A program made the translations under genes and the position numbers. Under the pieces are notes generated by a model. It did no database searches and had not been told where the DNA came from. It saw only the letters and a program-made list of their open reading frames with translations. From an uncultured virus (IMG/VR IMGVR_UViG_3300036832_000815) (taxonomy: Duplodnaviria; Heunggongvirae; Uroviricota; Caudoviricetes): 20,000 nt of DNA. The DNA lies in the IMG/VR virus record IMGVR_UViG_3300036832_000815, one strand, 5' to 3'. Positions 3 through 19,959 of the stretch are shown one piece after another (position 1 is the stretch's first letter; each line of letters opens with the position of its first letter).

Positions 3-3000
3 ACCTGGACCGTTACTAGGGGAGCCGAGGGAGCCGCCCCCTGGGCGCACGTCGCAGGCTGGACGGCCATACCGGTCCTGACCGCCCAGGCGCTCGGTCA
101 GTTCCCCCGCTTCCCGCTGACCAACACCGCGGCCACGGCCGCCACGATCGAGTACCGCACCAACGTCACCGCCGATACCCAGTACCGCTTCACCATCACC
201 GCCGACGGCACCCAGTCCTGGGGCTCGGGCGCGGCGGTGGCCAAGTATGGGCTGGGTGGGGCCGAGCAGAACGTCAGCGGCTACGTCGGCCTACCCATCT
301 TGATGCCCAACGCCTCCAACGTGGCCACCCTGGCGGGGGTGATGTTCAACGGCAGCCAGGGATCCGGCATGGGCCTGGGCTTCGTGTCCGGCAGCCACGC
401 CGCCTTTGTCACCCCATCCGGGTACACCCTCTTCCTCAACAACGTCTCCCTCACCAGCACCCACACGGGCGTCCCAGGGATCAAGATCATCCTGGCCGCC
501 AGCCAGGGCTCCCCTGCCCTTCAGATCAACAACAGCGGTGGCTCGCTGCTGAGCTTCTTCGACCCCAACGGCAACCTGGGCATCAATGGGCCTGGGATTG
601 GGAATCTCTCCTACAACGTGCAGGTGGGGACGGCCAGTACCGGCTCGATCGGCATCGGTGGGGGCTCCATCAGTGAGGCCGGGGGCTACACCAAGTTCTA
701 CCGGGCCAGCGGCAACTTCGACTTCGAGTGGGGCACGGTAGCCTCGACGTTCTTTGGCGGTGGCCTGAACATTGCCGGTTCTGGGACGGCCACGATACCG
801 GCTCTACAAACGCAGGTCGGGAATCCTGCTTATCCAGCCCTGTCGGTTTTTGGGGCTGGTGGCCAAACCGGCAACATCATGCAGGTAGGCACGGCCAGTG
901 GCAATGGCGTCTTTGCAGTGGGACCGAAGCTGGCCCTGACGCTAGGTGCCTTTGATGCTACTACCATCCCACTTACTATCAGTGGTTACAGTGCCCAGAC
1001 CGCTGACTTGTTGGATCTTAAAAACTACGGTGGCACCGTAGTTACATCATTTGATAGTGGTGGTGGTCTTCATTTCAGCACCGATACAGCACTCTATCGT
1101 TCCAGCCCACAACAGCTAACTATCGGCTCTGGCAGCAACTCTTGGGACGTTGGCATACAGAACGGTGCTTCACTGACGTACCACGGCAATGCTATGAGTA
1201 CTGGTTATGCGCTTTCCCAAGATGCTAACAGTACCTATCTGAACGCCACGTCAGGTGGTTATGTCTTTTGCCGGAGTGGCAATGTCAATGACATCTGGAC
1301 CACCAATAACACAGGCATGACGCTCAACCGGCCCATAGGCATTGGTCGCATCGGCCAGCCCATGGCCGGAGTCTGGGTTTGGTCTGCGGCCACGGCTGCC
1401 ACCGACATCCCGTTAGTTCTCCAGGCCGGTAACGGCCAAACCGCCGACACCTTCGAGATCAGATCGTATGGCAACTCGATTATCTCTGGGTTTGACGCAA
1501 CCGGTCGATTGTACCTCGGTCCTACGCCATCCTTCGGTGCAGGTACTGGCCCCATGCTTTTCCTGGGTAATGACACCGCCGATCCCACCGCCAATCCCAC
1601 AGGCGGTGTCATACTCTATTCCTCGGCTGGAGTTCTCAAGGCCCGCACCCCCAGCGGGGCCATCGTCCAGTTAGCCCCCAGCACAGGAGTGGCCGCACCT
1701 CTCGTCTTGACCGCCCCTACGGCCACCACCGTGCCCTTGACCCTGGTCGGAGCAGCCAGCCAGAGCAGCGACCTGCTGGATGTCCAAAGCAGCGGCGGCT
1801 CCACTCTGGCGGCCATCGACGCTACCGGTGCGCTCTATGGCCCCTCGGTGGGTGGTTTCAACGGCAACGACCGGGTCTACTTCCCGGCCGGTAACTACGT
1901 GTCGGTGCCCCAGTACCTCAGCGTGGGCACCTCGGCGGCCACCAACAGCGGCCAACTCACGGTCTATCCCACCACCACCGGGACGACCGCTATCGCCGTC
2001 AGCCTCAAGGCCAGCCAGACCGGTGACGCCCTCACCATCTACAACTCGGGCGGCTCAGCCGTCCTGGGCATCAATGCCACCGGCCAGTTGTACATGGGCT
2101 CTTCTCAGTCCTTCGGCGGTGGCACCGGACCCATGCTGTTCCTCAACAATGACACCGCCGATCCGGGCTCGAACCCGTTCGGCGGGGTCGTCATCTTCTC
2201 GTCGGCGGGGGTACTCAAGGCCCGTACCCCTTCGGGCGCGATCGTGCAGCTAGCCCCTCAACCCGCTCCGGCCGGGGCCGCCTCGGGTGATCTGTCCGGC
2301 ACCTATCCCGGCCCCACCGTAGCCCGGATCAATGGCACCAGCGTCCCGGCCACCCCGACCTCGGGCCAGGTCCTCACGGCCACCTCCGGCACGGCGGCCA
2401 CCTGGCAGACCCCCGCTACAGGTGTCTCCTTCCCCCTGAGCAACACCGCCGCCGCCGCTACCACCATCGAGTACCAGACTCAGGTCACCGCCGACACTTT
2501 CTACCGCTTCACCATCAACGCCCGAGGCGATCACGCCTGGGGCAATGGGGCGGGAGCCACCGACACCAACCTGGCCCGTACCGGCAACGGCATCCTGGCT
2601 CTGACCGCCACGGCCAGAGCCGTCCTCAGCGTGCAGGGTGGCGTCGGCATCACCGAGCAGTCCGCTTCCGCCACCCCGCTGAACATCCAGGCTGCGGCCA
2701 GCCAGACTGGTCCACTCACCTCCTGGGCCAACTCCTCCGGCCAGGTCATCACCTGGATCGACTCCGCTGGCACCTTCAACACCTGGGTGGCGGCCGACAC
2801 CGTGGCCCGCTTCAACCTCAACGCCAACGGGTCCATGTCCTGGGGCCTGGGCAATGCCGGGCGCGACACCGGCCTCTTTCGCCAGGCAGCAGGACTGTTG
2901 GCCGTCGGTGGTAGCGCATCTGCGGCCAACGGCTGGGATGTCGGCAATACCGGCCTGGGTGGCTCCCTGGCCGGTCTGGTGGCTCACGGGATGAGCGGCA

Positions 3001-5975: not shown

Positions 5976-6895
5976 TGCCTGCTCTCAAGTACTGGGATGC
6001 CGGGAGCAGTCAGTACGTCCTGCTCATGCCGGGGACACCGACCACCTTCCCGCTTATCTACACCCAGACTTTGACCGCTCCTACGGTGGTCTCGTCGCCG
6101 TATCAGGTCAACCACAACCTCGGTACCACCACCCCACTCGTACAAGTTTATGATGCCGTAACCGGCCAGCTTGTCATGGTCGGTATCACGGTGGCCAACA
6201 GCAACTCCATCCAGGTCAGCGTGTCGGCCAACATGCCGAACAACGTCAACGTGGTGGTGGTCGGGACAGCCCAGTCACCGATACCGATCAACCCCGCGGA
6301 CCAGGCCAGCAAGTCCTACGTCGATGCCCGTACTCCCAACCTGCCTGCCCCCATTACCTCAGGTAGCGGTGTGCAGAGCTTCACCGATGTCCTGGGCGAT
6401 GTATGGGTGGCCGCCAACGGCGTGAACTCGGGCGCGTGGAAGCGGGCACGGGATGTCATTCGCGCTCGGGTCTATCGTAATGCCGCTTACACCGTACCGG
6501 GGATAAACACCGCCACCGGCATGCCTTTTGACAGCACTAATGATGATGCTTACAGCGGATGGTCGGCGTTGAACACCACTTCGGCTATCTACACTTGTCC
6601 AATAGCGGGTCGTTATCTGGTGATGACCAGGTGTGACCTACTAGGTACCAGTGTGGCTGCTCGGCTTTTTAGCTCTGTGTATAGAGGAGCTAATCTTGCA
6701 GGTGTAGTTGAATCAATGCGAGGTGTTGATCTTACTCAGAACTCAAACACTCCTCTGACTTCAACTAATGCTGGGACGATGTTTTGCAATGTCCAAGACG
6801 TGGTGCAGATGAGGTTTTACGCCACCATTGCTCAAGCCTTTGAAGTTGGTACGGCGATGGCTTGGATGGATATTCAGTACATAGGAACGTCCTGA
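5975..6895 (+). CDS. Fibre/receptor-binding protein, paralogue 1 (HNLG beta domain, SKSYVD fibre motif, shared linker, C1q-like head)
   Basis: TAATG overlap with the upstream gene. Motifs: VNHNLGTTTPLVQVYD, DQASKSYVD (ATKxYVD-type), NLPAP...FTDVLGDVWVA...WKRARDV, and the C1q-like signature FD...D...YTCPIAGRY. Confidence 0.75.
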   Translation: MPALKYWDAGSSQYVLLMPGTPTTFPLIYTQTLTAPTVVSSPYQVNHNLGTTTPLVQVYDAVTGQLVMVGITVANSNSIQVSVSANMPNNVNVVVVGTAQSPIPINPADQASKSYVDARTPNLPAPITSGSGVQSFTDVLGDVWVAANGVNSGAWKRARDVIRARVYRNAAYTVPGINTATGMPFDSTNDDAYSGWSALNTTSAIYTCPIAGRYLVMTRCDLLGTSVAARLFSSVYRGANLAGVVESMRGVDLTQNSNTPLTSTNAGTMFCNVQDVVQMRFYATIAQAFEVGTAMAWMDIQYIGTS

Positions 6896-8076
6896 TGGCC
6901 AAGCTCAGCACGTTGGAGTATGCCTTTGTGGGCCTCTCCAATCCGCCTTGGGCCAGTTCGAATGCGGCCGGAGGCTCGTTTTCGGCCGCGAGCGGGCAAC
7001 TGACCATGAACGTCCCGGCGAACACGGCCAGCGCCCACGCGTCGTTGGTCACCTACACCAGCGGTGCCTACACCTATTGGGATATCACCGAGAGTTCCAT
7101 CGTCGTCCGGGTGGTGAACGCGGGGACGCAAAACGCCACTCTCGAACTGTGGGCACCCCAGTTGGTGGACTCCTCCGGCAACTGGTTTGGATGGCACATC
7201 GCCAATGGCCAGATCCAGGCCGACTACGAGGGCACCATCATAGCGTCGGCCACTTACAATGCCTTCACTCACGCCTGGTTGAGGATACGTGAGACGGCCA
7301 GTACCACCTACTTCGACTACTCCTCTGATGGCGTGAACTGGACCAATCTCACCTCTTATGCCGATACCGCTCATAACTACGTACCGACGGCGGTCTATGT
7401 AAACTTCTACCTGGGCAGCAACAGCAGCGGCACCAATCCTGCCACTACAGCGGTCCTCGACAACCTCAACTTGACACCACCTGTCTTCGCCCAGGTACCT
7501 GACTACAGCCTCAGCAATAATCTACCTGCTCCGGTCGCCACCACCACCATCCAATCCTTCACTGATCTGAACGGCGAAGTATGGGTGGCTAAGAACACCG
7601 CCAATGCCAACAACGGGCAGTGGCGGCGCGCCCGTGACGTGTTGATGGGCAGGATTTGGCGTAGTGCCGCTCTGAACTTCGCTGCTAGCCCCGGCAACGT
7701 CATCGCCTTTGACACCGTGGCTGGCGACAACTTCGGCATGTATACCGGAGCCAGCTTCTATGGTTTCTCGGTGCCCATTGCTGGCTGGTACGAGGCAATG
7801 GGCAACCTCCAGGCCACTTCCTCTGTGGCGAACACCTACGTTCAGGGATCCATCCAGCAGAACACCGGTCCCTCCAATGGCACCGTCGTCAACTGGTCCA
7901 GCGACAACTACTTCACCTCGCGGGCTTCGGGTGGCCTGCTCTGGCGCTCCAAGGCCCTGATGTACCTGGCCGCCAATGACATCGTCAACATCAAGGCGTA
8001 TAACCAGAACCTGTTCGCAGTATCCGGGGGCGCGGTCTGCTCCTTCCTCTGCCTCGCCTACATGGGGTCAGGATGA
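6895..8076 (+). CDS. Receptor-binding protein, paralogue 2 (N-terminal ConA/LamG-like lectin domain, shared linker, C1q-like head), 393 aa
   Basis: Start reassigned from 6862 to ATG 6895, which overlaps the upstream stop (TGATG). HAWLRIRETASTTYFDYSSDGVNW is a ConA-like motif. FDTVAGDNFGMY...FSVPIAGWY is C1q-like. Confidence 0.75.
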   Translation: MAKLSTLEYAFVGLSNPPWASSNAAGGSFSAASGQLTMNVPANTASAHASLVTYTSGAYTYWDITESSIVVRVVNAGTQNATLELWAPQLVDSSGNWFGWHIANGQIQADYEGTIIASATYNAFTHAWLRIRETASTTYFDYSSDGVNWTNLTSYADTAHNYVPTAVYVNFYLGSNSSGTNPATTAVLDNLNLTPPVFAQVPDYSLSNNLPAPVATTTIQSFTDLNGEVWVAKNTANANNGQWRRARDVLMGRIWRSAALNFAASPGNVIAFDTVAGDNFGMYTGASFYGFSVPIAGWYEAMGNLQATSSVANTYVQGSIQQNTGPSNGTVVNWSSDNYFTSRASGGLLWRSKALMYLAANDIVNIKAYNQNLFAVSGGAVCSFLCLAYMGSG

Positions 8077-8633
8077 GCATCCTGACCTACGCCCCTCTCG
8101 ACAACCTTTCTGCCCCGGTGGTCACCGGCACTACCACCCAATCATTCCAGGACATATACGGTGAGGTGTGGGTGGCAGAGAGTGGGATAAGGAACGGGCT
8201 TTGGTTCAAGGCCCGTGAGGTCTTGCATGGTCACGTCACTCGGAGCGCAGCCTTCACCCCTCCTACCACCCCGAGCCTCTTCGGGTGGGACACCGTGGTA
8301 GGTGATCCGTTTGGAATGTATGTGGCGAGTCCTACCTACGGGTTCGTGGTGCCGGTGACGGGCTGGTATCACGTCAATGCCCAGTGGTACTGCGGGATCC
8401 CTACCACGCAGGATTACTCCGGGATTCGCATCTATCAAAATACCACTATGATGACCAATGAGAACATGATCCAGAACTTGGCGAACGGTGGTGTCCATGC
8501 CAAATCGCAACTGGATATCTATGCTGCTGCTAACGACACCTTCACCATGCAGTACTGGACCAGCGTGGCTGCGACTGCTTCTGGGTCAGTACTGTTCAAT
8601 CATTTTTACGTGAGTTATCTGGGGTCGGCGTGA
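8073..8633 (+). CDS. Stand-alone linker + C1q-like head protein, paralogue 3
   Basis: ATGA overlap. NLSAP...QSFQDIYGEVWVA...WFKAREV, then WDTVVGDPFGMY...FVVPVTGWY; ends YLGSA. Confidence 0.75.
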   Translation: MSILTYAPLDNLSAPVVTGTTTQSFQDIYGEVWVAESGIRNGLWFKAREVLHGHVTRSAAFTPPTTPSLFGWDTVVGDPFGMYVASPTYGFVVPVTGWYHVNAQWYCGIPTTQDYSGIRIYQNTTMMTNENMIQNLANGGVHAKSQLDIYAAANDTFTMQYWTSVAATASGSVLFNHFYVSYLGSA

Positions 8634-9193
8634 GCATTCCTATTTACACCACGCTCAATGATCTACCTGCCCCGGTGACAACCGGCGGCATTCAGGCTTT
8701 CACCGATGTGTACGGCGAACAATGGGTGGCCAAGCCGGGTGTCTATAACGGATCCTGGCGCAAGGCTCGCGACGTGCTGCACGCCGTGATCTATCGCAAT
8801 GCGGCCCTAGCCAACATGCCCACATCGTCTGCTACCTTCATTGCCTATGATACGGTGCTTCGGGATGTCTATGGCATGTTCTCCAGCAATGGGTTCTTGA
8901 TACCAGCCGCCGGTTGGTATCGCATCCAGGCCACCGGTAATACGAACGCCGCCGCCATCGGTCAGTACGCCACGACCTGGATCTTCGGTGGTCCCTCCGC
9001 GGGTACGACTATAGGGCAGGGGAACAACGTCACTGTTCTTGCCAGTGGTGGCATGAGTTGTCGGGCCTTCGTGGAGACGGTCTGCGCGGTCAATGACCTG
9101 ATCAAGAGTACAACTGTTCAGCCTCAAGGAAATGCCGGGCAGGTCGGTCAGGGGAACATGCGTCTGGAAATCTCGTACATAGGAGCCGGTTAG
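8630..9193 (+). CDS. Stand-alone linker + C1q-like head protein, paralogue 4
   Basis: GTGA overlap. DLPAP...QAFTDVYGEQWVA...WRKARDV, then YDTVLRDVYGMF...FLIPAAGWY; ends YIGAG. Confidence 0.75.
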   Translation: MSIPIYTTLNDLPAPVTTGGIQAFTDVYGEQWVAKPGVYNGSWRKARDVLHAVIYRNAALANMPTSSATFIAYDTVLRDVYGMFSSNGFLIPAAGWYRIQATGNTNAAAIGQYATTWIFGGPSAGTTIGQGNNVTVLASGGMSCRAFVETVCAVNDLIKSTTVQPQGNAGQVGQGNMRLEISYIGAG

Positions 9194-9201
9194 GAGGATC
9201 A

Positions 9202-9786
9202 TTGAGCTATTTGACCTACGCCTTGTTGACCGAGGACGTGAACTTCGGACGACGGTCCCGTGCCTGCATCAACGAGACCGCCAATAGTCTTAATCAAGAC
9301 AGTAATCCTGCCATAGCAGCGTTAGCTACCGATCTGCTGAAGCAAGAAGGATTGCAGACCGTTGTCATGCTCAACTCCATCTGTGCTGGCCCGAACTTCA
9401 GTGAACTCGTTGACAATGGCGATGGCACCATCGACTCCACCAAGATCTCTGACGAGGACATCAAGGCTCATACCCAGGCCATGTTCACCGAGGTGGCGTG
9501 GATCTTCTATCCCGACAAGATGCCGAGTGGAACACCTCTGCCGCCCTCGGTTGATGCCGTGGATCCCACCAGTGGTCCCAACGGCACTCCTATCACGCTC
9601 ACGGGGGTGTCCCTGAGCGGGACCACCAAGGTCGCCCTGGGCGGAACGACCTGCACCGATCTGAACGTGGATAGCGACACCCAGGTGACGGCCGTGACCC
9701 CGTCCGGTCCCAACAAGGGTGCCCGATCCATCGTGGTGACCGTGGACGGCACCGATGTCTCTGGCCCCAGTTTCCAGGTTACTTAG
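9202..9786 (+). CDS. Fibre-associated small protein (possible assembly chaperone) with C-terminal IPT/TIG Ig-like domain
   Basis: AGGAGG at 9192-9197 precedes the TTG start. PSVDAVDPTSGPNGTPITLTG...VDSDTQVTAVTP is a typical IPT/TIG pattern (9541-9783). The N-terminal half is paralogous to 9819..10154. Confidence 0.7.
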   Translation: MSYLTYALLTEDVNFGRRSRACINETANSLNQDSNPAIAALATDLLKQEGLQTVVMLNSICAGPNFSELVDNGDGTIDSTKISDEDIKAHTQAMFTEVAWIFYPDKMPSGTPLPPSVDAVDPTSGPNGTPITLTGVSLSGTTKVALGGTTCTDLNVDSDTQVTAVTPSGPNKGARSIVVTVDGTDVSGPSFQVT

Positions 9787-9818
9787 ACTCCATCGATCCC
9801 AATCACCTCGGAGGTGTT

Positions 9819-10154
9819 ATGAGCTACAGCGCCGTCAGTTTGCTGAACCAAGATCCCGCCTACGCCGGACGGGTCCGGTCCTGTGTCACCGAGCAGGCCG
9901 CCTCGTTGACCGGGGACGCCAATCTGGCCACGGCGGCCTGCGCCAACGCCGGGCTGCGCGGTGACCCGGTCATCATGGACACCTTCGTGCGGACCACCTC
10001 CAGCGCCCCTGGCCTGGGTGACAAGGCCGACAAGGGTGATGGCACCGTCGATCAGACCCTGATCGCGGACGGCGACATCCTGGCCGCCATCCAGGCCAAC
10101 TTCCCCAGAGTGGCGGCGCTGTTCTTCAACGACGAAGGAGTGAGGATCGCATGA
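9819..10154 (+). CDS. Fibre-associated small protein, paralogue of the N-terminal domain of 9202..9786
   Basis: GGAGG RBS. Shared pattern MSY..LL..D....R.R.C..E.A.SL ... DxGDGTxDxT.I.D.DI.A..QA.F..VA..F. Confidence 0.7.
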   Translation: MSYSAVSLLNQDPAYAGRVRSCVTEQAASLTGDANLATAACANAGLRGDPVIMDTFVRTTSSAPGLGDKADKGDGTVDQTLIADGDILAAIQANFPRVAALFFNDEGVRIA

Positions 10155-10378
10155 GCCCAGGGAAGAAGGAATCCAGCACCCGCATGCGCCTGGTGGGCTG
10201 GAACGTCCAGCCCGTCCTCATGGCCGACGACGGTGACAACCTGACCCCGGTCCAGGTGGGGGCCACCATGATCTCGGCCGCCAACTGGGACGAGTTCAAG
10301 GAGGGCGGCGACAAGCTGGCCCTGGAAGACCTGCGGACTCAGATCGAGAACGGAAAGGCCGAGCCCAGCAGCCCCTGA
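10151..10378 (+). CDS. Hypothetical protein (75 aa)
   Basis: ATGA overlap, AAGGAG/GAGG upstream, GC3-rich codon usage. Confidence 0.65.
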   Translation: MSPGKKESSTRMRLVGWNVQPVLMADDGDNLTPVQVGATMISAANWDEFKEGGDKLALEDLRTQIENGKAEPSSP

Positions 10379-10387
10379 GGTGATTTG

Positions 10388-11890
10388 GTGATCCTGGCTG
10401 CCACCTCGACTCTGACGGCCACCGTCACCGTTACCGGGCTGTCAGTCACTCCGCTCGCTGCGCCGGTAAGCCCGATGGCGGGTGTGTTAGGCGCGCCGGT
10501 CGGGAACTTTGTACTGAGCAAGCCGCTGGTGGCCGGGGCAGCCGGTGCCGTCGGCATGTCGGCCAGCACCGGCATGGTGATCCAGGGACAGGTCACCCAG
10601 GTGGCCCAGGTGGCTCTATCGGGCTCTTCCGGGATGACCCTGGCTGGGACGGTGGCCCGTCAGGCTTCGATCGCTCTGTTCGCCACGGCCGGGATGACGG
10701 TGGCCGGAGCCGTCACCCAGGCCGCCTCAGTGGCCCTGTCGGGGACCGCCAGCCTGACCCCCACCGGTATTCGTATCGTGCCTGCCACGGTGCCCCTGAG
10801 CGCCTCTGGGGGGCTCACCGTGGCCGCCACCCAGATGGTCATCGCCACCGTGGCGGAGTCGGCCACCGCCAGCCTGACGGTGACTGGGATTCTCGCCCAG
10901 CAGGCCGCCATAGCCCTGACCGGGAATACCACCCTGACCGTCGCCGCCACCGTCAGCGAGTTCGCGGCCCTGGCCTTGTCGGGGACGGGATCCTTATCGA
11001 TCGCCGCCTCTTTGACGGTCTTGGGGTCGGTGCCCATGGCGGCGCTGACCTCCCTGACGACTAGCGGAGTGTCCGTACCGGGCACGGCCGTCTTCATGGG
11101 GGCCACCACCACCCTGACCATGACGGTGATGGTCACCGAGATCGCCGCCATAGCCCTGACCGGCAGCATCAGCCTGACCATCGCCGGGGTGGTGATCCGC
11201 TCCGCCGGGGTGATCATGAGCGCCACCGCCGGGTCCACCATTGCCGCCCTGGTGACCGAGTGGGCGGCCGTCGTCATGACCGCCAGCGCCAGCCTGACAG
11301 CCGTGGCCCTGGTCAAGGAGTTGGCCAGCGTTTCCATGGCCGCTCTGGCCAGCCTGACGGTGGCAGGCGGGATCACCGTGAACGCCGTCATAGCCATGGC
11401 CGCCCTGACCACTCTGAGCGCCGCGGCCTCGATCATCGAGCTTGCCACCGTGGCCCTGACCGGCTCCGCTTCCCTGACCGGGGCGGCCTCGGTCAAGGAG
11501 TTCGGGGTGGTGGCCCTGTCGGCCAGCGCCACCCTGCTGCCGGTGGGCCTGGTCATCGAGGTCGCCGCTGTGGCCCTGTCGGCCACTGGTTATCTCACCG
11601 CCAGCAGCCTGGTCATCGAAGTGGCCGCGGTGGCCATATCGGCCACTTCTGTCCTCACTATCACCGGTATAACCACCGAAGTTGCCGCTCTTGCTTTTCT
11701 GAGTGCTACCGCCGTTCTTTTCAGCGGTTATGTCGTTGAGGTAGCCTCGGTCGATCTGAGCGCCAAAGCCGGAATGATCGTCCATGCGGGCGTCTATCCG
11801 GCTAGATTTGTATTCAGAGATCTGATTCGAGCCCACGCCGAGCTTTATCCCTATCCGGCGGTCGGTACCACGCTGGAGACCTCAGGCTAG
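10388..11890 (+). CDS. A/T/V/S-rich protein of ~21 repeats with exact 20-aa period; putative fibre scaffold/ruler
   Basis: GAGGTGA at 10377-10383 favours GTG 10388 (TTG 10385 is possible). Consensus VxEvAxVALSATASLTVxGx runs without register slips over about 10532-11791. Confidence 0.75.
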   Translation: MILAATSTLTATVTVTGLSVTPLAAPVSPMAGVLGAPVGNFVLSKPLVAGAAGAVGMSASTGMVIQGQVTQVAQVALSGSSGMTLAGTVARQASIALFATAGMTVAGAVTQAASVALSGTASLTPTGIRIVPATVPLSASGGLTVAATQMVIATVAESATASLTVTGILAQQAAIALTGNTTLTVAATVSEFAALALSGTGSLSIAASLTVLGSVPMAALTSLTTSGVSVPGTAVFMGATTTLTMTVMVTEIAAIALTGSISLTIAGVVIRSAGVIMSATAGSTIAALVTEWAAVVMTASASLTAVALVKELASVSMAALASLTVAGGITVNAVIAMAALTTLSAAASIIELATVALTGSASLTGAASVKEFGVVALSASATLLPVGLVIEVAAVALSATGYLTASSLVIEVAAVAISATSVLTITGITTEVAALAFLSATAVLFSGYVVEVASVDLSAKAGMIVHAGVYPARFVFRDLIRAHAELYPYPAVGTTLETSG

Positions 11891-11900
11891 GAGAACCCCC

Positions 11901-12836
11901 ATGACCGCCCTGCCCAATCCGGCTCCCGGCAATCCTCCGGCCAACCTGGAGGACTACGTCTACGTCACCCAGCAGGGCAACGACCAGGTGGGCATCATCA
12001 TCAACGTGGGCGGGGTGCCCACCGACCCGGATGGTCAGGTGGTGCTGGTGGCCATGACCCCTGATCAGATCGGATCCAACCCGGTGTTCACCGGCCGCGA
12101 CGCCGTGCGTGAGTACACCGGGGCCTACAGCTACACCTTCCTGTCCGCCGACACCGCCGTCTCCGGTCACTACCACCTGGCCTGGACCTACCAGCTATCC
12201 GGCGTCCCCGACACCTTCCTGACCCCCATCGAGGTCGGTCCCTACAGCCCGGCCTACTTGGCCTTGCCCGCCGATATGCGGGCCATCATCGAACTGGTTT
12301 GGGCCAGGTTCGCGGACGGCTACGACTACGCCTTCGGTGGCCCGCACCTGCAGAGCTACTTCCAGAGCCACTTCGGCCGGGGCCGCATGGCCCAGTTGCT
12401 GCAGATCGTCATCATGACCGTCAACACCTCCATGCAGCCGGTCAGCAGCTACTCCCTGACCGGACCCTCCAGCGATCCCAACGTCCCCCCGATGGGGCCA
12501 GCGTTTCCGGTCCAGCAGTGGAGTGGCCTGCTGATCAGCGGGCTGACCATCGAGGTGTTCAAGCACCTGATGCGCTCCTACGTGGAGGAGCCCATGGCCG
12601 AGAACGTCACCGCGGCGCGTATGACCCGGCGGGATTACCTGGAGCGCTGGGGCGAACTTCTGGCCGTCGAACAGCAGACCTACCAGCAGATGTTCGAGGT
12701 GTTCAAGATCCGCCAGATGTTCGCGGGCCTGCAGCCCAGGGTGATGGTCTCGGGCGGGGTGTTCGGCAACTTTGGTCCCACCCGGCTGGCAGGCAATGCC
12801 GCGGCCCGGCCCCGCTATTGGACAAGGTGGTACTAA
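11901..12836 (+). CDS. Putative head-to-tail adaptor with N-terminal Ig-like domain
   Basis: AGGAG RBS. The N-terminal part is beta-rich (TGAYSYTF...GHYHLAWTY). The helical C-terminal part (VWARFADGYD..GGPHLQSYFQSHFGRGRMAQLL...RRDYLERW) recalls actinomyovirus neck proteins. It lies upstream of the sheath. Confidence 0.6.
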   Translation: MTALPNPAPGNPPANLEDYVYVTQQGNDQVGIIINVGGVPTDPDGQVVLVAMTPDQIGSNPVFTGRDAVREYTGAYSYTFLSADTAVSGHYHLAWTYQLSGVPDTFLTPIEVGPYSPAYLALPADMRAIIELVWARFADGYDYAFGGPHLQSYFQSHFGRGRMAQLLQIVIMTVNTSMQPVSSYSLTGPSSDPNVPPMGPAFPVQQWSGLLISGLTIEVFKHLMRSYVEEPMAENVTAARMTRRDYLERWGELLAVEQQTYQQMFEVFKIRQMFAGLQPRVMVSGGVFGNFGPTRLAGNAAARPRYWTRWY

Positions 12837-12840
12837 GCCC

Positions 12841-13038
12841 ATGCAATACCTCAACACAAGTGCCAATGACTATGCCGTGAACTACACCGTGTCAACGGCC
12901 AATATCAGCCAGGTGTCCTGGAAGCTCTACGAGCCGCCCAGCGACCCCTCAGAGCCGCCCTGTGGCGTCCGGGAGCCCCGCAGGCCCCTGCTACCCACCG
13001 GCTCGGCCAGCCAGGCCCTGGCGCTGCCTGAGGGCTGA
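12841..13038 (+). CDS. Small hypothetical protein (65 aa) with GVREPRRP motif
   Basis: ATG 4 nt after the upstream stop, in frame with ORF 12772..13038. It fills the gap between genes but has no clear RBS. Confidence 0.45.
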   Translation: MQYLNTSANDYAVNYTVSTANISQVSWKLYEPPSDPSEPPCGVREPRRPLLPTGSASQALALPEG

Positions 13039-13060
13039 TCAGAGCGACGAAGGGGTGAGA
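13037..13060 (+). promoter_or_regulatory. Repeated 24-bp motif, copy 1 (GATCAGAGCGACGAAGGGGTGAGA); candidate late promoter/operator
   Basis: Identical to 18375-18398 at 22 of 24 nt; lies directly before ATG 13060. Confidence 0.5.
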
Positions 13061-13317
13061 TGCCCGACAGCAGTGACACCAGCACCTCCAGGCAGGAGAC
13101 GCGCCTGGCCAAATGGTCCGAGGAGCAGACCCAGGCCGCCGCGGCTCATCACGGGGTAGCCCCCGAGGACCTAACCCACGAACACTTCGCGGCCCTGGAC
13201 TGGGCACCGGCCGAGGAGATCCGGGTCGATCACATCAGTGGCCGGGTGGTCCACCTCGACAGCCACGGCAATCGGCGGGTCATGACCATCGAGGAATGGA
13301 ACCGGGAGGAACACTAG
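13060..13317 (+). CDS. Hypothetical 85-aa protein; possibly the separated N-terminal part of the next gene
   Basis: AAGGGG upstream, GC3-rich codons, stop 2 nt before GTG 13320. Confidence 0.6.
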   Translation: MPDSSDTSTSRQETRLAKWSEEQTQAAAAHHGVAPEDLTHEHFAALDWAPAEEIRVDHISGRVVHLDSHGNRRVMTIEEWNREEH

Positions 13318-13319
13318 AG

Positions 13320-13709
13320 GTGGAGACCAACGTCGGTATCGGCATCATGGAGCAGCTTCTGACCGGCACCGCTCAGCCCACTCCCTTCGACGGTGGTCAT
13401 GCCCGCATCGGGGTGGGGGACGGCAACGGCTCGGTGCCCACCGTCCACGCCACCGACACCGCCCTGGTGGCCACCACCAACAAAGCCTTCGTGGGCATGA
13501 ACTCCGGGTTCCCCCAGCAGTCCGGCCAGGTCATGACCTGGCAGGCCACCTTCCCGGCCGGGGTGGGCACCTTCTTCTGGCGGGAGTGGTGCATCGACAA
13601 CGGCAACGGGGGTGGGCCGGGGCAGCTTTTCAACCACGTCGGGATCTCGATGGGCAACAAGACGGCCGGGACCACCTGGACCTTCCAAGTTTCGGTGACG
13701 CAGTCCTGA
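13320..13709 (+). CDS. Small beta-sandwich virion protein (tail-collar/fibre subunit-like), 129 aa
   Basis: Start reassigned from 13113 to GTG 13320 (GGAGG at 13305-13309). Motifs TNVGI...RIGVGDG...TDTAL...WQATFP...WREW..DNG...FNH...K...TWTFQVSVT. Confidence 0.65.
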   Translation: METNVGIGIMEQLLTGTAQPTPFDGGHARIGVGDGNGSVPTVHATDTALVATTNKAFVGMNSGFPQQSGQVMTWQATFPAGVGTFFWREWCIDNGNGGGPGQLFNHVGISMGNKTAGTTWTFQVSVTQS

Positions 13710-14152
13710 TGCCCTTCACCAACTACCTCGATCAGAAGCTGGCCGGGCTGTTCCTGGGCAACACCGCCTACGTCATCCCCGCCAACCTGTACCTGGGCCT
13801 GTCCTCCACGGCTCCCACTCAGACCCAGGTGGGCTCCCCGGTCTGGAACTTCACCGAGCCCGCCGGTAACGCCTACGCACGGGTGACGGTGCCCAACAAC
13901 TCTACCAACTTCGGGCCGATCGGCACCGAGCCCCCGGCCGGGTACACCATCCAGAACAAGCTGGTCATCACCTTCCTGCAAGCCAGCGGACCCTGGCTGG
14001 CGGGAGCCCCGCTGTCCTACTTCGGGCTCTTCGACGCCCTCACCGCAGGCAACCTGTGCCTGTACGGGACCTGCTCCCCGGCCCAGACGGTGGGCTCCGG
14101 GAACATCACGCTTTCATTCGCCGCTGGCGCGCTGAACATCACGCTGAACTAA
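13709..14152 (+). CDS. Small beta-sandwich fibre 'bead' protein (gp80-like), 147 aa
   Basis: Start reassigned to ATG 13709 (TGATG overlap). Motif FTNYL...LYLGLSSTAP...EP.GNAYARV...N...ITF..A...W....YFGLFDALTAGNL..YG...FAAGAL.I. Confidence 0.7.
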   Translation: MPFTNYLDQKLAGLFLGNTAYVIPANLYLGLSSTAPTQTQVGSPVWNFTEPAGNAYARVTVPNNSTNFGPIGTEPPAGYTIQNKLVITFLQASGPWLAGAPLSYFGLFDALTAGNLCLYGTCSPAQTVGSGNITLSFAAGALNITLN

Positions 14153-14162
14153 GGAGCAAACA

Positions 14163-14561
14163 ATGCCCGTAGGAGTCGCCACTCCGACCGCCAACAGCAT
14201 TCTGGCATTGATGCTCAACGGTACCGCTTATGCCGGGAACACCACCCTATACGCCCAGTTGCACATCGGTCAACCAGGACCGGCGGGCACGGCCAATGTA
14301 GCGGGCGAGAACCTGCGGGTTACGTGCGGGACTGCACCGGAGTTCAGCGCTCCTGCCAACGGGGCCTGCACCAACAACAATCCCATTACCTGGTCAGCCG
14401 TTACCACCAACGAGACCTACGCCTTTGTCACGCTGTGGACGGCGCTTACGGGCGGGACCTTTATAGCGTCAGGATCCATCTCTGCCCAGCCGGTAGTAGT
14501 CGGCAACAACTTCTCCATCCCGGCCGGAGGCTTGTCTGTTTCGCTGCCTGTAGCGAGTTAG
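14163..14561 (+). CDS. Second small beta-sandwich fibre 'bead' protein (gp80-like paralogue), 132 aa
   Basis: AAGGAG RBS. LYAQLHIGQPG..GTAN...R...N...ITW...LWTALTGGTF..SG...IPAGGLSV aligns by eye with 13709..14152. Confidence 0.7.
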   Translation: MPVGVATPTANSILALMLNGTAYAGNTTLYAQLHIGQPGPAGTANVAGENLRVTCGTAPEFSAPANGACTNNNPITWSAVTTNETYAFVTLWTALTGGTFIASGSISAQPVVVGNNFSIPAGGLSVSLPVAS

Positions 14562-14564
14562 CCT

Positions 14565-16916
14565 ATGGCGACTTACCGCCTGTTCCCTTCTACCAACGGA
14601 CCAGCTACCGCCACCGCTCGCTCCGGGAACTTCATCTCCGGGGTGACCTGGACCGTCACTCAGGGCGGCATGTGGTTCACGGGCTATTACTGGTGGGTGT
14701 GTGGCTCGGGTCAGACCGTCACCCCGGTCAAGTGCGCCCTGTGGTCCCTGCTGGGCGGCACCAGCGGGCTGGTCATCCCTGGCAGCGTGGTCACCTCCGG
14801 CTCCCTGACCGCCAACGCTTGGAACTACATTCCCCTCCCTAATCCCATCCAGATCGCCATCGGTGACACCCTGGTGGCGGCGATTGGCGTCAACGGGGCC
14901 TACCCCGACACCCCCAACTCCTTCGGGGCCGGGCAGACCTACGCCAACGGCATCACCCAGGGGCCACTGCGAGCCTTCTCCGCCCCCAGCGGCAACTACC
15001 CCAGTAGCTGGGGCAACCCCCAAGGCTGCATGTCCACGGCCGGTAACGACCCTTCCACCACCATCCCGCTGACGGCCCAAGGCACCGACAACCTGTGGGT
15101 CGGGGTCCAGGTCTCCGACACCGCCGCCCCCACCTACACCGGCACCTGGCGGCTGTGGCCCCACATGGCCTCGGCCACCACCTATACCCAGCCCAACACC
15201 ACCGATAATCTCACCGTCGGCACCGAGATCGATATCACCGCCCGAGCCACCGTCAACAACATCTGGTTCTACAGCCCGGCGGGCACGGCCCAGCTTCCCA
15301 CCGAGGTGTCCATCTGGACCATGACCCAGGGCGGTCTGAACGGCACCGCCGTGGTGGACGTGGTCAACCCCACCTGGTCGGGCGCGGCCGGGAGCGGCTG
15401 GATCTCCACTCCCATCCCCGGCAACGTGGTCCTGCCCATCGGCAAGTACCGGGTGTCGGTCTACAACGACACCATCACCCCGGATCAGTGGTCCGCCTTC
15501 TACACCGGCTACTGGGGGATCCCGGCCGGTCAGACCTACCCGGCTCCGGGCCAGAGCGGCATCGTGGCCGGTCCTATGACCGCCCCGGCCACGGCCAACG
15601 CCCAGACCGCCTTCAGCTACAACGGGGCCGGGGCCACCGAGCCCGGCCAGTCGCTGTTCGCCTACGGGCCGCCCAACTCCTTCCCGAACTTCTACATCGG
15701 GGTCAACTCCCCCGGCGGGGCGCTCTTCCAGAACTACTGGGTGGACCTGGAAGTCACCACCGTCATCGTCACCGTCACCGGCACCGCCTCCGTTGCCATA
15801 GCCCCGTTAAACGTCAGGGCAAACGGCATCGTTTCGGTGAGGGGAACGGCCAGCATTGTGGTCGGTCCCGTCAACATTGTGGCCACCGTTACCACCGTCA
15901 TAGGCACGGCCAGTGTCGTCGTTGGCGGTGTGAACGTCGCTGCGAACGGGCGTACCACGGTCCTGGGAACGGGTCGTATAGCGCTGGGCGCGCTGGACCT
16001 GGAGGCTACCGGGCACACCATCGTGGTGGGCCACGCCACCATCGTGGTCGGGCCGATACTGGTGGTGGCAGCCCGCGTCAACAAGGTCTTCACCCGAGGC
16101 GAGTCGGTCAGCCAGTCCGCGGTGACCGGCACGCTGCACAAGGCCGTTCTGGTCTCCAGCACCGGCCCGGTCACGGCCCTGTCCTCGGCCAGCGCGGCGC
16201 TGACCTCGACCCTGTACATCCCGCCCGGCACCGATGTCGGCACCTCGACCGAGACCCAGTCCATCCCCGACATCCGGGCCGCTCTGCTCGACCATTTCCT
16301 GGACACCTACGTGGTGCCCGATGTCAAGTCCTGGGAACTGGAGAACGAGCGCTTCCGCCATGACCAGGCCCTGTACCGCTACGGCGAGTACGCCATCTTC
16401 GTGTCCATGTGGACCATGCAGGACTTCACGGCCGGGCTGGTGAGCCGCTGCTCGACCTGCTTCGCCCCCCAGGGCGCGATCGAGGACACCTGGCAGCAAC
16501 CGGCCTACTTCAAGTGCCCGAACTGCCTGGGCACCAGCTTCGAGGGCGGCTACAAGGCCGTCCTGGTGCGGCCGTCGTTGTGGTCCTGGAATGAGCCGGT
16601 CCTACAGCAGGTGGCCCGCGGCGTCATCAACACCGACGTGGCCACGGTCCAGACCACCAGCGACTTCCGGCTGGAGCCCAAGGACTACATCATCCGGGGC
16701 GACGGGTCGCGCTGGCAGGCCCAGGAGGTCTCGGGTGACCATCTCGACACCGGCTTCGGGACCCAGTCCGGCATCTGGAACGCCACCGCCTTCATCTACA
16801 ACAACGTCACCCGAGAGGACGAGTCCTCCCCCATTTACCTGCTGCCTATCACCGAGGATTACATCCAGAAGCACATCCCGCAGTACTACTCCCGTCAGCC
16901 CGTAGGAGACTTCTGA
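14565..16916 (+). CDS. Fusion protein: 2x DUF4082-like domain, 20-23-aa beta-repeat stalk, CxxC/CxxC neck (head-closure/stopper-like) domain
   Basis: Two Trp/Tyr-rich beta domains, the second ending NYWVDLEV (about 15755). GTASxxVGxxNVxAxG repeats at about 15770-16200. C-terminal ERFRHDQALYRYGEY...RCSTC (16449-16460)...KCPNCLGTSFEGGY (16515-16526). Confidence 0.7.
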   Translation: MATYRLFPSTNGPATATARSGNFISGVTWTVTQGGMWFTGYYWWVCGSGQTVTPVKCALWSLLGGTSGLVIPGSVVTSGSLTANAWNYIPLPNPIQIAIGDTLVAAIGVNGAYPDTPNSFGAGQTYANGITQGPLRAFSAPSGNYPSSWGNPQGCMSTAGNDPSTTIPLTAQGTDNLWVGVQVSDTAAPTYTGTWRLWPHMASATTYTQPNTTDNLTVGTEIDITARATVNNIWFYSPAGTAQLPTEVSIWTMTQGGLNGTAVVDVVNPTWSGAAGSGWISTPIPGNVVLPIGKYRVSVYNDTITPDQWSAFYTGYWGIPAGQTYPAPGQSGIVAGPMTAPATANAQTAFSYNGAGATEPGQSLFAYGPPNSFPNFYIGVNSPGGALFQNYWVDLEVTTVIVTVTGTASVAIAPLNVRANGIVSVRGTASIVVGPVNIVATVTTVIGTASVVVGGVNVAANGRTTVLGTGRIALGALDLEATGHTIVVGHATIVVGPILVVAARVNKVFTRGESVSQSAVTGTLHKAVLVSSTGPVTALSSASAALTSTLYIPPGTDVGTSTETQSIPDIRAALLDHFLDTYVVPDVKSWELENERFRHDQALYRYGEYAIFVSMWTMQDFTAGLVSRCSTCFAPQGAIEDTWQQPAYFKCPNCLGTSFEGGYKAVLVRPSLWSWNEPVLQQVARGVINTDVATVQTTSDFRLEPKDYIIRGDGSRWQAQEVSGDHLDTGFGTQSGIWNATAFIYNNVTREDESSPIYLLPITEDYIQKHIPQYYSRQPVGDF

Positions 16917-17680
16917 TGCCCCTCGGCACCCGCGCCCCGGATCGAGCCATCATGGTCATCGACGGGCTCAGCGTGGCCGACGCCAAGTGGTTGTCCTCGA
17001 TCGCCGTCATCTACGCCCGTAGGCATGCCCCCAAGCTGACCGGGATCTCGGCGTCGAGGATCATGCCGCTCTACGGCCGGGAGCATTTCGGCCTGCGCTG
17101 GGCCGACGATAGGGTGTGGTTCCAGAACGCCGGGGTGAACCCCTTCGTCATGCGCTCCCTGGCCGGGAAGACTATCCCCATGTGGATCGATGATCCGACC
17201 GGCACCGAGCGCCAGAAGAACCCCAATGCCAAGGTGCGGGTCACCGAGAGTCAAAAGATCCAGGTGCTGATCTTTCGTCGGGTGGGCAGGCGAGGAGACA
17301 AGAAGACCGTCACCCGGCGCACGGGTGGCCAGGTCCAGAAGATCGAGGTGCCCAACTGGAACTTTCCCGGCGCGCCCGGCCGCATCACTATGCGGGAGGC
17401 GGCCCAGCCTCATACCACGCCGGGTCGGGTTGGTGGCCGTATCGCCAAAGGCAACATCGGGTTGCGCTGGTACTTCCCTGGGCTGAGCCCCCGCAACTTC
17501 ATCCAGCACGGGTTGGTCCAGGCATGCAATGCAGCCAACGTCATCCCCGGTCCTATCCATATCGGCTACAACTTCTACTCGGCCCGTGCTTCACTTGGTG
17601 ACAAGATCCCTGCTTATCCCCGGCAACCCATGGCCGAACGGATGAGTAAGATGGCGAAAAGAGGTATGCAATCTACTTAG
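16916..17680 (+). CDS. Basic virion morphogenesis protein (putative neck/tail-completion, HK97 gp10-like position)
   Basis: TGATG overlap. R/K-rich, with ARRHAPKLTG...WFQNAGVNPFVM...RWYFPGLSPRNFI. Sits between the stopper-like and terminator-like genes. Confidence 0.55.
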   Translation: MPLGTRAPDRAIMVIDGLSVADAKWLSSIAVIYARRHAPKLTGISASRIMPLYGREHFGLRWADDRVWFQNAGVNPFVMRSLAGKTIPMWIDDPTGTERQKNPNAKVRVTESQKIQVLIFRRVGRRGDKKTVTRRTGGQVQKIEVPNWNFPGAPGRITMREAAQPHTTPGRVGGRIAKGNIGLRWYFPGLSPRNFIQHGLVQACNAANVIPGPIHIGYNFYSARASLGDKIPAYPRQPMAERMSKMAKRGMQST

Positions 17681-17685
17681 TTCAG

Positions 17686-18351
17686 TTGATGCATGTCATC
17701 ACTTCAGGCTTGAAGAGCGTTTTCCATGGCGACTATGTGTCCATGGACGACCAGCCGGACTTCGCCGGTCTGCACGTCTCCATCGAGTACCCGCTCACTC
17801 CTCAGGACTACCCCGGCGTGTGGGTGGACTTCGAGCCCGAGGGGGAGCTTTCCCGTGGCGGCATCGATGACATCAACACCTACCTGCCGAATGGGGATAC
17901 GTCCCTGACCCCGTTGTACCTGTGGCGTGCCCAGGGTTGGGCCACCTACACCCTGGCCACTCTGACCTCCATGCAACGGGCGCGCCTGCACGATGAGATC
18001 GTGCGGGTGTTCGCCTTCGGCTCCGACCCCACCGTGGCGGCCTTCCGGGACACCATCGAGACCAACGACTACCTGGCCATGAACATGGACTTCGACCGCA
18101 TCGCGGAGCGAGGAGCCTCGGCCACGCCGGGTACGCCCTGGGGGACAGAAGAGATCATCTACGAGACGACATTGGCCATGCAATGCGTGATCGAGTTCTA
18201 CTCCACAGCGAATAAGGACAAGCTCTATCCGCTGTCCGCCATTCAGATTTACTCCACGCCTAAGGATTTGAATACTTGGACCGAAACCAGCCTCGATGCT
18301 AATGGGACATCCATCGGACCAGGCACACCGCCATCAGATGGTTGGCAGTAG
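17686..18351 (+). CDS. Putative tail terminator (start uncertain: 17671, 17686 or 17689)
   Basis: Acidic ~220-aa protein with SIEYP...YPGVWVDF and TLATLTSMQRARLHDEI motifs, immediately upstream of the sheath. Confidence 0.6.
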   Translation: MMHVITSGLKSVFHGDYVSMDDQPDFAGLHVSIEYPLTPQDYPGVWVDFEPEGELSRGGIDDINTYLPNGDTSLTPLYLWRAQGWATYTLATLTSMQRARLHDEIVRVFAFGSDPTVAAFRDTIETNDYLAMNMDFDRIAERGASATPGTPWGTEEIIYETTLAMQCVIEFYSTANKDKLYPLSAIQIYSTPKDLNTWTETSLDANGTSIGPGTPPSDGWQ

Positions 18352-18483: not shown

Positions 18484-19959
18484 GTGTCCATCATTGATTT
18501 CACGCAGTACCAGCCTCCCGATGTTTATATCGAGGCTTTGGCGGCCCCACTTGTCGGGGTCACTGGCATCGCTCCTGATGTCATCGGGATTGTTGGTCCA
18601 TCCCTCGGTTACAAGACCACAACGGAGAGCTATGTACTGACCGATACCATCCCGGTCACGCTGAATCAGTTTGGAGCTAATCCAGCCAGTGTGAGCATCA
18701 CCGATGTATCCGGGAATGCATTCCTTCTGACCGACTGGGTCACCACTGTTTTGCACGGTTCAACCCCGGCTCAGAACCAGGTCACGGTGGCTCGGTCCCC
18801 CACCTCGAATATCATCAGCGGCCAGGTGGTCTACATCACCTATCAGTACACCGATGGGAACTACTACCTCCCGGCCACCTATACCGACTACCCCTCGGTG
18901 AAGCGGGACTGGGGCGTCCCGCTCGACCTGACCACCAACGCCATCCTGTCCCCGCTGTCCCTGGCGGCTCAGTTGGCCTTCATCAACGGGGCCAATACCA
19001 TCATCATCTGCCCCACCCAGGACACCGGAGGCGTGGTCACCCGCACCGGCCTGCAAGAGGCGTACCAGACCATGGCCTCCATCGTCCCGCTGGACATCAT
19101 CGTCCCGCTGCCGGTGGGCATCAGTGGCACCTCGGCGCTGCCCGGTGACACCATCAACGTCGGCCTGGACCTGGCCTCCTTCCTGAACCAGCAGGCCCAG
19201 GTGGGCATCTTCGGAGTGGGCCTGGTGGGCTACGACGCGGCCAACACGGTTCCGCCCGACACCATCGCCAGCGGCATCTCCAGCTACCGCATCCAGGAAC
19301 ACTGGCCAAATCAGATGAACTACTTCAACGGCACCAACAACGCCTCGTTCATCATCTCCGGTTACTACCTGGCCGCGGCCTGGGCCGGGGTGCTGGCCTC
19401 CCTGCAGCGCCAGGTGCCGCTGACCAAGAAGAACGTCTCGGGCCTGTCGGGCATCCCCAACTCGGTGTTCACCACCATGACCATGGCCTACAAGAACCAG
19501 CTATCGGCGGCCGGGGTAGCCGTCACCGAGCAGGTGACCGGCGGGGGTCTGCAGATGCGCCACTCGGTCACCACCTCCACGGTGGCCATCACCAGCCGAG
19601 AGCTATCCATCATCCGGGCGGGCGACGGCATGATCGAGATGATCGAGAACACCCTGGTGAACTCCGGTCTCATCGGCAGTGCCTTCACCCCGACCACCCT
19701 GGCCAACGTCAAGAGCCTGGTCCAGGGAGCCCTGGAGGCCCTGCTCAACCAGGGGCTGATCGTGGGCTACACCGGGCTCGGAGTCCAGCAGCAGGCCACC
19801 AACCCTCTCGTCGTCCTGGTGCAGTTCCAGTACCAGCCCGCTTACCCCCTCAACTACATCGTCGTCCAGTACTCGATCGACACCACCACCGGCTCGGTCT
19901 CGACCGTCACCACGGCCCCCGATCCCACGGGTGGCTCCACCGGCAACACCGGCACCTAG
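18484..19959 (+). CDS. Contractile tail sheath protein
   Basis: N-terminal YQPPDVYIE (PGVYxE-type), YYLAAAWAG...PLTKK, ELSIIRAGD and C-terminal FQYQPAYPLNYIVV are sheath hallmarks; 491 aa. Confidence 0.9.
   Translation: MSIIDFTQYQPPDVYIEALAAPLVGVTGIAPDVIGIVGPSLGYKTTTESYVLTDTIPVTLNQFGANPASVSITDVSGNAFLLTDWVTTVLHGSTPAQNQVTVARSPTSNIISGQVVYITYQYTDGNYYLPATYTDYPSVKRDWGVPLDLTTNAILSPLSLAAQLAFINGANTIIICPTQDTGGVVTRTGLQEAYQTMASIVPLDIIVPLPVGISGTSALPGDTINVGLDLASFLNQQAQVGIFGVGLVGYDAANTVPPDTIASGISSYRIQEHWPNQMNYFNGTNNASFIISGYYLAAAWAGVLASLQRQVPLTKKNVSGLSGIPNSVFTTMTMAYKNQLSAAGVAVTEQVTGGGLQMRHSVTTSTVAITSRELSIIRAGDGMIEMIENTLVNSGLIGSAFTPTTLANVKSLVQGALEALLNQGLIVGYTGLGVQQQATNPLVVLVQFQYQPAYPLNYIVVQYSIDTTTGSVSTVTTAPDPTGGSTGNTGT

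Follow-up and report, generated by a model that had tools for sequence, protein, structure and literature searches.

Rope-and-bead fibres, in which small bead proteins are threaded along an extended rope polypeptide, have been seen by cryo-electron microscopy since 2023 in a handful of phages, with 2 to 11 beads per rope. The locus described here lies between positions 10385 and 16916 of a 20,000-nucleotide (nt) stretch (the window) of the uncultured Caudoviricetes record IMGVR_UViG_3300036832_000815, and contains three small genes (beads 1 to 3) placed between a 501-amino-acid (aa) repeat protein (rope 1) and a 783-aa protein that includes a second repeat tract (rope 2). It probably encodes a rope-and-bead fibre system of the kind known from phages GP4, Bas63, and A1002, in a phage with a contractile tail.

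The bead family concerned, PF23140 (Gp80), is named after and built on gp80 of the Ralstonia podophage GP4. As related in later papers, GP4 Fiber I (PDB 8JOU; Zheng et al. 2023, J Mol Biol) consists of five gp80 dimers on a separately encoded rope, which interlocks with gp77, an immunoglobulin (Ig)-like fibre-tail adaptor or collar. In the myophage Bas63, whiskers are reported to be built of dimers of a GP4 Fiber-1 homologue that sit 'like beads on a string', two to a rope, on a rope domain at the N terminus of the collar protein, with the rope completing the incomplete bead sandwiches; the carrier is described as a dodecameric Ig-like collar protein with no tip domain (PMC12609058). The neck whiskers of the myophage Sf14 are described as being of the same collar-whisker type, with bead dimers on a rope (PMC11821841). 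In the Pseudomonas podophage A1002, 11 dimers of two paralogues (gp40 and gp41, with 16% sequence similarity) are reported to attach to a nozzle-rope protein by beta-sheet augmentation, and the fibre-dock domain of ~268 aa spans ~300 Å with its 11 dimers, giving ~24 aa and ~27 Å per dimer (PMC13730344).

The original prediction for this locus, made from the window sequence, drew its bead-chain idea from gp80 of the Anabaena myophage A-1(L). This proves to be the wrong source, as the model for the neck fibre of A-1(L) consists of gp82, gp81, and gp80 trimers (~1:14:1) on a gp5 pentadecamer, no rope polypeptide is reported in the available text of that account (PMC10966104), and the Gp80 family takes its name from GP4. 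The mechanism that was proposed at the same time, in which each repeat docks a bead and repeat number sets the length of a neck fibre, is a principle already published for the Gp80 family, and by analogy the locus appears to fit it, because it combines Gp80 genes, 20- to 21-aa repeats with two strand-like halves, a fusion to a stopper-like domain, and a wide co-occurrence of such genes and repeats in other phages.

Bead genes and the Gp80 family

All long genes in the window are on the + strand (from the list of open reading frames [ORFs]), including each of those described here. Bead 2 (147 aa; 13709-14152) and bead 3 (132 aa; 14163-14561) match PF23140 at 87.6 bits (E = 1e-24) and 68.7 bits (E = 8e-19), respectively, where the gathering cut-off is 27 bits, and they share 29% pairwise identity. 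By sequence both are clear members of the Gp80 family, and both are of the expected size, the family forms being a single domain of ~130-170 aa or a tandem double. The direct match of bead 2 to GP4 gp80 (chain 8jou_a) is weak (E = 0.017) and covers residues 5-142, and a tblastn search of 50,697 phage records with bead 2 as the only query matched 17, none of which is an Anabaena phage.

The family is large, with 2082 cluster representatives found at E ≤ 1e-3 in a search with bead 2. Among the best 150 of these, 85 are at most 190 aa long and 61 are 215-300 aa, the latter size being suggestive of two Gp80 domains in tandem, that is, covalent 'dimers'. Such double-domain forms are in line with a dimer as the working unit. 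A natural fusion of a bead to a rope was also sought and none was found, the sole find being a 269-aa double Gp80 protein.

Bead 1 (129 aa; 13320-13709) matches PF12571 (tail-collar fibre N-terminal) weakly (E = 2.8e-5) and also matches phrog_23653 (E = 1e-22). It is not filed under PF23140, because it has no Pfam match to that family and hhalign gives a probability of 0.7% against the Gp80 profile. Its language-model neighbours include clusters in which 15% of the members carry PF23140, which is a lead only, and bead 1 may have a Gp80-related fold. Thus, the three beta-sandwich bead genes that had been proposed reduce to two firm cases (13709 and 14163), with the gene at 13320 set apart by its missing Pfam Gp80 match. 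The presence of two or three bead paralogues is a new feature of this locus.

Repeat tracts and their carriers

Rope 1 (10385-11890) begins with an N-terminal leader of 60 aa, continues with 20 units of 20 aa each, and closes with a C-terminal tail that has a conserved LYPYP motif. The gene starts with a TTG codon at 10385, which is followed by GTG at 10388 and has GAGGTG upstream. BLOSUM autocorrelation peaks at lags of 20, 40, and 60 residues (z = 14.5, 14.4, and 13.2 versus 200 shuffles), and residues 61-460 hold 20 units in exact register, with no insertions or deletions and with the consensus TASLTxAGxVxExAAVALSA. The previous estimate of ~21 units in this gene had the unit length right and the count one too high, because a degenerate flanking unit was included. 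Twenty units on one rope is a new feature, the solved cases having 2, 5, and 11 docking sites.

Four related contigs (L002 to L005) keep rope 1 in the same position. Two of them (L002 and L003; 80% identity) and L004/L005 have the same gene order, with all three small genes present. The rope 1 homologues are 535 aa (L003), 1195 aa (L002), and 1883 aa (L004) long, the differences are of whole 20-aa units, and the longer homologues carry CBM_4_9 domains; among close relatives the rope is thus free to differ in length, from 501 aa in the window to 1883 aa in L004, with the beads conserved. The C-terminal motif (V/I)Rx(G/A)AxL(Y/F)P(Y/W/F)P (11800-11890 in the window) has a single copy in the window and in L004 and three copies, spaced by ~22-24 aa, in both L002 and L003. 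This LYPYP-type motif may be the anchor of rope 1, acting as a docking peptide for a ring protein.

The 783-aa protein (14565-16916) has three parts. The first, residues 1-402 (14565-15770), has two DUF4082-like domains ending in YWVDLEVT, is likely the distal tip, and is probably sugar-binding or lectin-like. The tip of the window protein itself has no Pfam match, and its L007 homologue, at 49% identity, matches DUF4082 with E = 6e-11. In contigs L006 to L008 the tip module either has another repeat tract attached or ends by itself; at L008 (9995-12490) a DUF4082-like module is combined with a 20-aa tract of the GSG type and there is no stopper domain, and this 21-kb locus has no Gp80 match.

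The second part, rope 2 (residues 403-555; 15771-16229), has five ~21-aa GTASxxVGxxNVxAxG units followed by two looser units. Autocorrelation over residues 391-570 gives z = 5.5 at lag 21 and z = 6.3 at lag 41, and the five units open with glycines at residues 406, 427, 447, 468, and 489. The two looser segments open at G512 and G534, with the same pitch of 21-23 residues. They had been proposed as a different type of repeat, and this part of the proposal is weak because there are only two copies; the five ~21-aa units are confirmed. Rope 2 units do not match a hidden Markov model (HMM) of the rope 1 unit. By autocorrelation and by the table of units, both arrays are real, as had been claimed for two beta-strand-patterned repeat proteins flanking the small genes, and the bead genes are flanked by proteins with serial segments of 20 and ~21 aa that could dock beads, a pitch in agreement with those of A1002 and GP4 gp79.

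The third part, the C-terminal 203 aa (16305-16916), is a neck domain of the stopper or head-completion type. It matches phrog_2806 (E = 4e-10), and a length-limited search gave 14 homologues of 203-298 aa. An AlphaFold2 (AF2) model of the domain is of moderate quality (pLDDT [predicted local distance difference test] 70; predicted template modelling score [pTM] 0.68), and its top Foldseek matches are neck proteins, namely the phage 812 neck (E = 3e-4) and the T4 portal-neck-tail complex (E = 1e-3), followed by the P1 connector, the T1 stopper, and Douge, with modest template modelling (TM) scores of 0.4-0.6. Similarity of fold to solved stoppers is thus accompanied by a gene row like that of mycobacteriophage Phabba (below). 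A CxxC...CxxC pattern (16450-16530; residues ~629-655) is invariant in all 15 aligned sequences and, from its sequence, is a probable zinc ribbon; the AF2 model has its lowest confidence in this same stretch.

Rope 2 thus extends a stopper-type neck protein on its N-terminal side and carries DUF4082-like domains at its tip, which is a new feature, and it would be anchored to the virion through its fusion to a predicted ring protein with the stopper fold. The order of tip domain, rope, and ring protein parallels that of A1002 gp39 and the Bas63 collar, and a rope fused to a ring protein fits the rope-and-bead reading because the Bas63 collar and the A1002 nozzle-rope protein have this same architecture. 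The stopper protein of L004 has four repeat units and the stopper domain, without the tip. Adaptor and stopper-like genes were originally described as interleaved with the repeat and bead genes; the stopper-like element exists, as the C-terminal domain of the 783-aa protein itself, and the adaptor is a putative one, by position and synteny.

Bead genes, the 20-residue period, and alternative readings

Association of bead genes with proteins of similar period extends beyond the close relatives of the window. A 10-sequence bead profile was used to fetch 80 IMG/VR loci, which form 30 clusters at 70% bead identity, each with one representative, and ORFs were scored as periodic if at least 3 windows of 80 aa had an autocorrelation score of at least 0.7 at lags of 19-22. 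A periodic ORF lies no more than 3 kb from the bead gene in 16 of the 30 representative loci, and periodic ORFs make up 16 of 173 ORFs near a bead gene and 2 of 261 farther away (Fisher P = 1.7e-5, for loci that are related by descent). Six other lag bands, used as a control, gave 0-3 near and 1 far. Two of the 16 are possible false positives, as the ORF in L052 looks tape-measure-like and that in L029 is an AT-rich 22-aa repeat.

Repeats of different loci have very dissimilar sequences but keep the period. Sequence-unrelated repeat proteins with a period of 20-21 aa lie adjacent to Gp80 genes in L014 (7940-10000), L047 (13069-14670), L063 (1424-3871), and L034 (3754-4782), and example units in such proteins include ISATGxLSGTLxKQVxLxGS, xSYxNSAxxxQNYxx, and ARHLxxxAAATTTAxAxLxV. 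L014, L017, L063, and L067 have a single bead gene with a period-20 ORF immediately next to it. Another phage contig, L007, encodes a 1642-aa protein with repeats of the rope 1 type and, two ORFs from it, its one Gp80 gene, so that such repeats adjoin a lone Gp80 gene without any stopper fusion.

Among phages with described fibres, the autocorrelation of GP4 gp79, encoded beside gp80, is highest at lag 20 (z = 5.4), and this protein is flagged by the periodicity criterion. ORF005 of KPP25 (AB910393), a phage of the A1002 genus, is the counterpart of A1002 gp39 by its size (620 aa) and its place in the gene order; where it corresponds to the A1002 fibre-dock domain, its top lag is again 20, although weakly (z = 2.5), with almost no sequence repetition over the region of the 11 A1002 sites. 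ORF005 is unflagged, and the criterion thus misses a real rope.

The rope-and-bead reading of the window is supported by the family of beads 2 and 3, since its members form rope-bound dimers in GP4, A1002, and Bas63/Sf14. From dimerisation and binding to stoichiometry, fibre length, attachment sites, and the assignment of beads to ropes, we infer the following scheme. Beads 2 and 3, and perhaps bead 1, would form dimers, and each 20- to 21-residue unit, made of two short strand-like halves, would supply the strands that complete the beta-sandwiches of one dimer, so that successive dimers would be strung along the rope end to end. The C-terminal stopper-fold domain of the 783-aa protein would sit in the neck ring; as this ring is probably a hexamer, about six whiskers are expected, each with 5-7 dimers on rope 2 and ending in two DUF4082-like domains. 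Rope 1 would be a separate protein with 20 docking units; with dimers ~27 Å apart, as in A1002, it would reach ~54 nm and hold ~40 copies of the bead, and it would probably attach to a site on the virion through its conserved C-terminal LYPYP tail.

A bolder version of this scheme is offered tentatively, as a possibility that we would not yet favour. Here, one cassette would give two heteropolymeric neck or head-proximal fibres in which every bead paralogue, as originally proposed, has a repeat code of its own to read (20-aa units of the TASLT...AAVALSA form, 21-aa GTASxxVG units, or the two looser units), and the order of units would programme the order of bead types. The 20-residue pitch would then be a universal address unit of Gp80 ropes, and hundreds of period-20 proteins encoded beside Gp80 genes, unrelated in sequence, would be ropes with a fibre length set by their number of units.

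Several observations weigh against the rope-and-bead reading. No periodic ORF is present within 3 kb of the bead gene in 14 of the 30 representative loci, and the association is also confounded by shared ancestry of the loci. In the cultured Gp80 phages KKP_3916, phiM5, and ACP17, 11 selected neighbouring ORFs have no strong periodicity. GP4 gp79, only a putative rope of GP4, is absent from the PDB sequences. Bead 1, as noted above, falls outside PF23140. Among 17 window proteins scanned with Pfam there is no Gp77-type Ig-like collar (PF23148), which leaves rope 1 without a recognised anchor. Finally, AF2 applied to rope 1 alone gives an all-beta, solenoid-like model with 2-3 strands per unit (mean pLDDT 71 and pTM 0.61, from only 4 sequences), in which pLDDT is 70-87 across most of residues 100-460, and the weak Foldseek neighbours of this model are beta-solenoids (RsaA, Hbp, GlmU, CsgA, and tailspikes; best PDB E = 0.3).

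The last of these points belongs to the best-surviving alternative, which is nonetheless unlikely. It holds that the 20-aa repeats fold autonomously as a beta-solenoid or a curli-like beta-arcade rod and serve as a rigid spacer or shaft, with the beads binding elsewhere, for example only on the short tract of the 783-aa protein or on a rope encoded beyond the window. Twenty residues per coil is a common solenoid geometry, and in the relatives of the window the repeat tracts lie between carbohydrate-binding domains, as spacers would. Autonomous folding was named in the original prediction as an outcome that would speak against it, and the all-beta model of rope 1 is formally such an outcome. 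However, the model is weak evidence, because AF2 over-predicts solenoids for 20-residue repeats, having made solenoids of 36 of 50 random 20-residue units repeated ten times (as reported by Pratt et al.), and at E = 0.3 its best hit amounts to no match with a solved structure. The repeats found by bead genes elsewhere are polar and very different in sequence yet keep the same 20-aa period; a fixed-size external partner accounts for this more easily than a common core does. The association is specific both to lags of 19-22 and to the neighbourhood of bead genes.

A second alternative, which we consider improbable, restricts the bead rope to the 783-aa stopper fusion, giving short Bas63-like whiskers, with the 501-aa protein an unrelated virion or non-virion neighbour. 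The failure of rope 2 units to match the rope 1 unit HMM is consistent with this, as are the lack of a recognisable anchor domain in rope 1 or of a PF23148 collar among the scanned proteins, and the finding of only 3 rope 1 homologues in a search of 5.8 billion proteins. It accounts poorly for the rope-1-type repeats beside a lone Gp80 gene in L007, where there is no stopper fusion, for the period-20 ORFs that abut single bead genes in four other loci, and for the constant position of rope 1 in all four related contigs. That the 501-aa ORF is a chance open frame in GC-rich DNA is scarcely credible and was rejected: long overlapping ORFs are present on the opposite strand (10660-11586 and 10994-11836), but the rope 1 frame has a third-position GC content (GC3) of 0.82, similar to that of the flanking genes, it is on the same strand as its neighbours and tightly packed with them, and its conservation in L002 to L005 at the protein level, where length changes by whole 20-aa units, marks it as a real gene.

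The rope-and-bead reading has some broader consequences. The locus and the 80-locus scan suggest that the design is widespread in uncultured phages, that a rope can be recognised from sequence by a period of ~20 residues, and that ropes can be fused to different virion ring proteins (here a stopper) and tipped with sugar-binding domains. If this is true, the number of units would be a simple genetic dial for fibre length, and such fibres could be annotated, and perhaps engineered, from sequence alone.

Genomic setting and comparison with known systems

The phage is contractile-tailed, as it encodes a tail sheath (18484-19959; phrog_2839, E = 2e-75) with 34% identity over 94% of its length to the sheaths of the cluster C mycobacteriophages Phabba and Myrna. 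The Phabba neck row is phrog_2791, a ParB-C-like gene, phrog_2806, phrog_2819, phrog_2748, and the sheath. The window has this same row, but with the bead cassette inserted after phrog_2791 and with ~580 aa fused in front of the phrog_2806 domain. The phrog_2791 member (311 aa; 11901-12836; E = 1e-38) is a homologue of Phabba gp213 (E = 4e-24) and is a putative head-tail adaptor on the basis of its position and its phrog_2791 synteny with Phabba; it matched no solved structure in PDB sequence searches with either the single sequence or a profile, and a language-model atlas search gave unnamed viral clusters only. The bead cassette is headed by a small conserved protein (85 aa; 13060-13317), which is present in L002 to L005 (E = 1e-25 to 1e-41) and has no family match in Pfam or PHROG searches. 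Downstream of the 783-aa gene are two further neck or tail-completion genes (16916-18351; phrog_2819 and phrog_2748), in the same order as in Phabba. Direct PDB sequence searches were of no use for rope 1, the 783-aa protein, its C-terminal domain, or a 221-aa protein.

Upstream of rope 1 the window begins with a giant fibre-like protein (3-5975) of at least 1990 aa, open at its 5' end, which has no Pfam match. It contains several copies of a large internal module, in which GTGPMLFLxNDTADP...GGVxxxSSAGVLKARTPSG recurs ~5 times. It is followed by four consecutive paralogous fibre-tip genes (5975-9193; 306, 393, 186, and 187 aa) that share a C-terminal domain of ~180 aa opening with LPAPV...SFTDxxGExWVA, and these probably serve as alternative fibre tips or receptor-binding proteins; domains inside the rope proteins of L002, L004, and L007 are similar to the N-terminal part of the 393-aa protein. 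Three small genes (9202-10378; 194, 111, and 75 aa) are directly upstream of rope 1. The first (9202-9786) codes for a protein with a C-terminal IPT/TIG Ig-like domain (E = 6e-10), and the 111-aa protein is a paralogue of its N-terminal half. To see in this TIG-domain protein a counterpart of the rope-anchoring Ig-like collar of GP4 and Bas63 is only a guess. Overall, the analysis provides annotation for seven previously unnamed genes in the window.

In comparison with the known systems, the locus resembles GP4 in its bead family, PF23140, and in having a rope, rope 1, with a gene of its own. The two differ in tail type, GP4 being a podophage and the present phage contractile-tailed; in units per rope, with five dimers on each GP4 fibre and 20 units in rope 1; in bead genes, one against two or three; and in the Gp77 collar of GP4, for which the window proteins scanned gave no PF23148 match. 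A-1(L) is similar in being a myophage with a neck fibre of beaded appearance in electron micrographs; the A-1(L) fibre is modelled from trimers with no reported rope, and the shared name 'gp80' is a coincidence.

Bas63 and Sf14 resemble the window in having myophage neck appendages in which the rope is an N-terminal extension of a neck ring protein, as is rope 2. Unlike Bas63, the carrier in the window is a stopper-type protein with 5-7 units and a DUF4082-like tip, and there is an additional, free-standing rope with 20 units. A1002 is similar in that its rope is fused to a ring protein of the tail channel and ends in a globular domain, in having more than one bead paralogue, and in the length of rope used, which is ~24 aa per dimer versus units of 20 and ~21 aa in the window. 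It differs in that it is a podophage and its rope belongs to a split nozzle, whereas the ropes of the window are overt tandem repeats and would lie at the neck.

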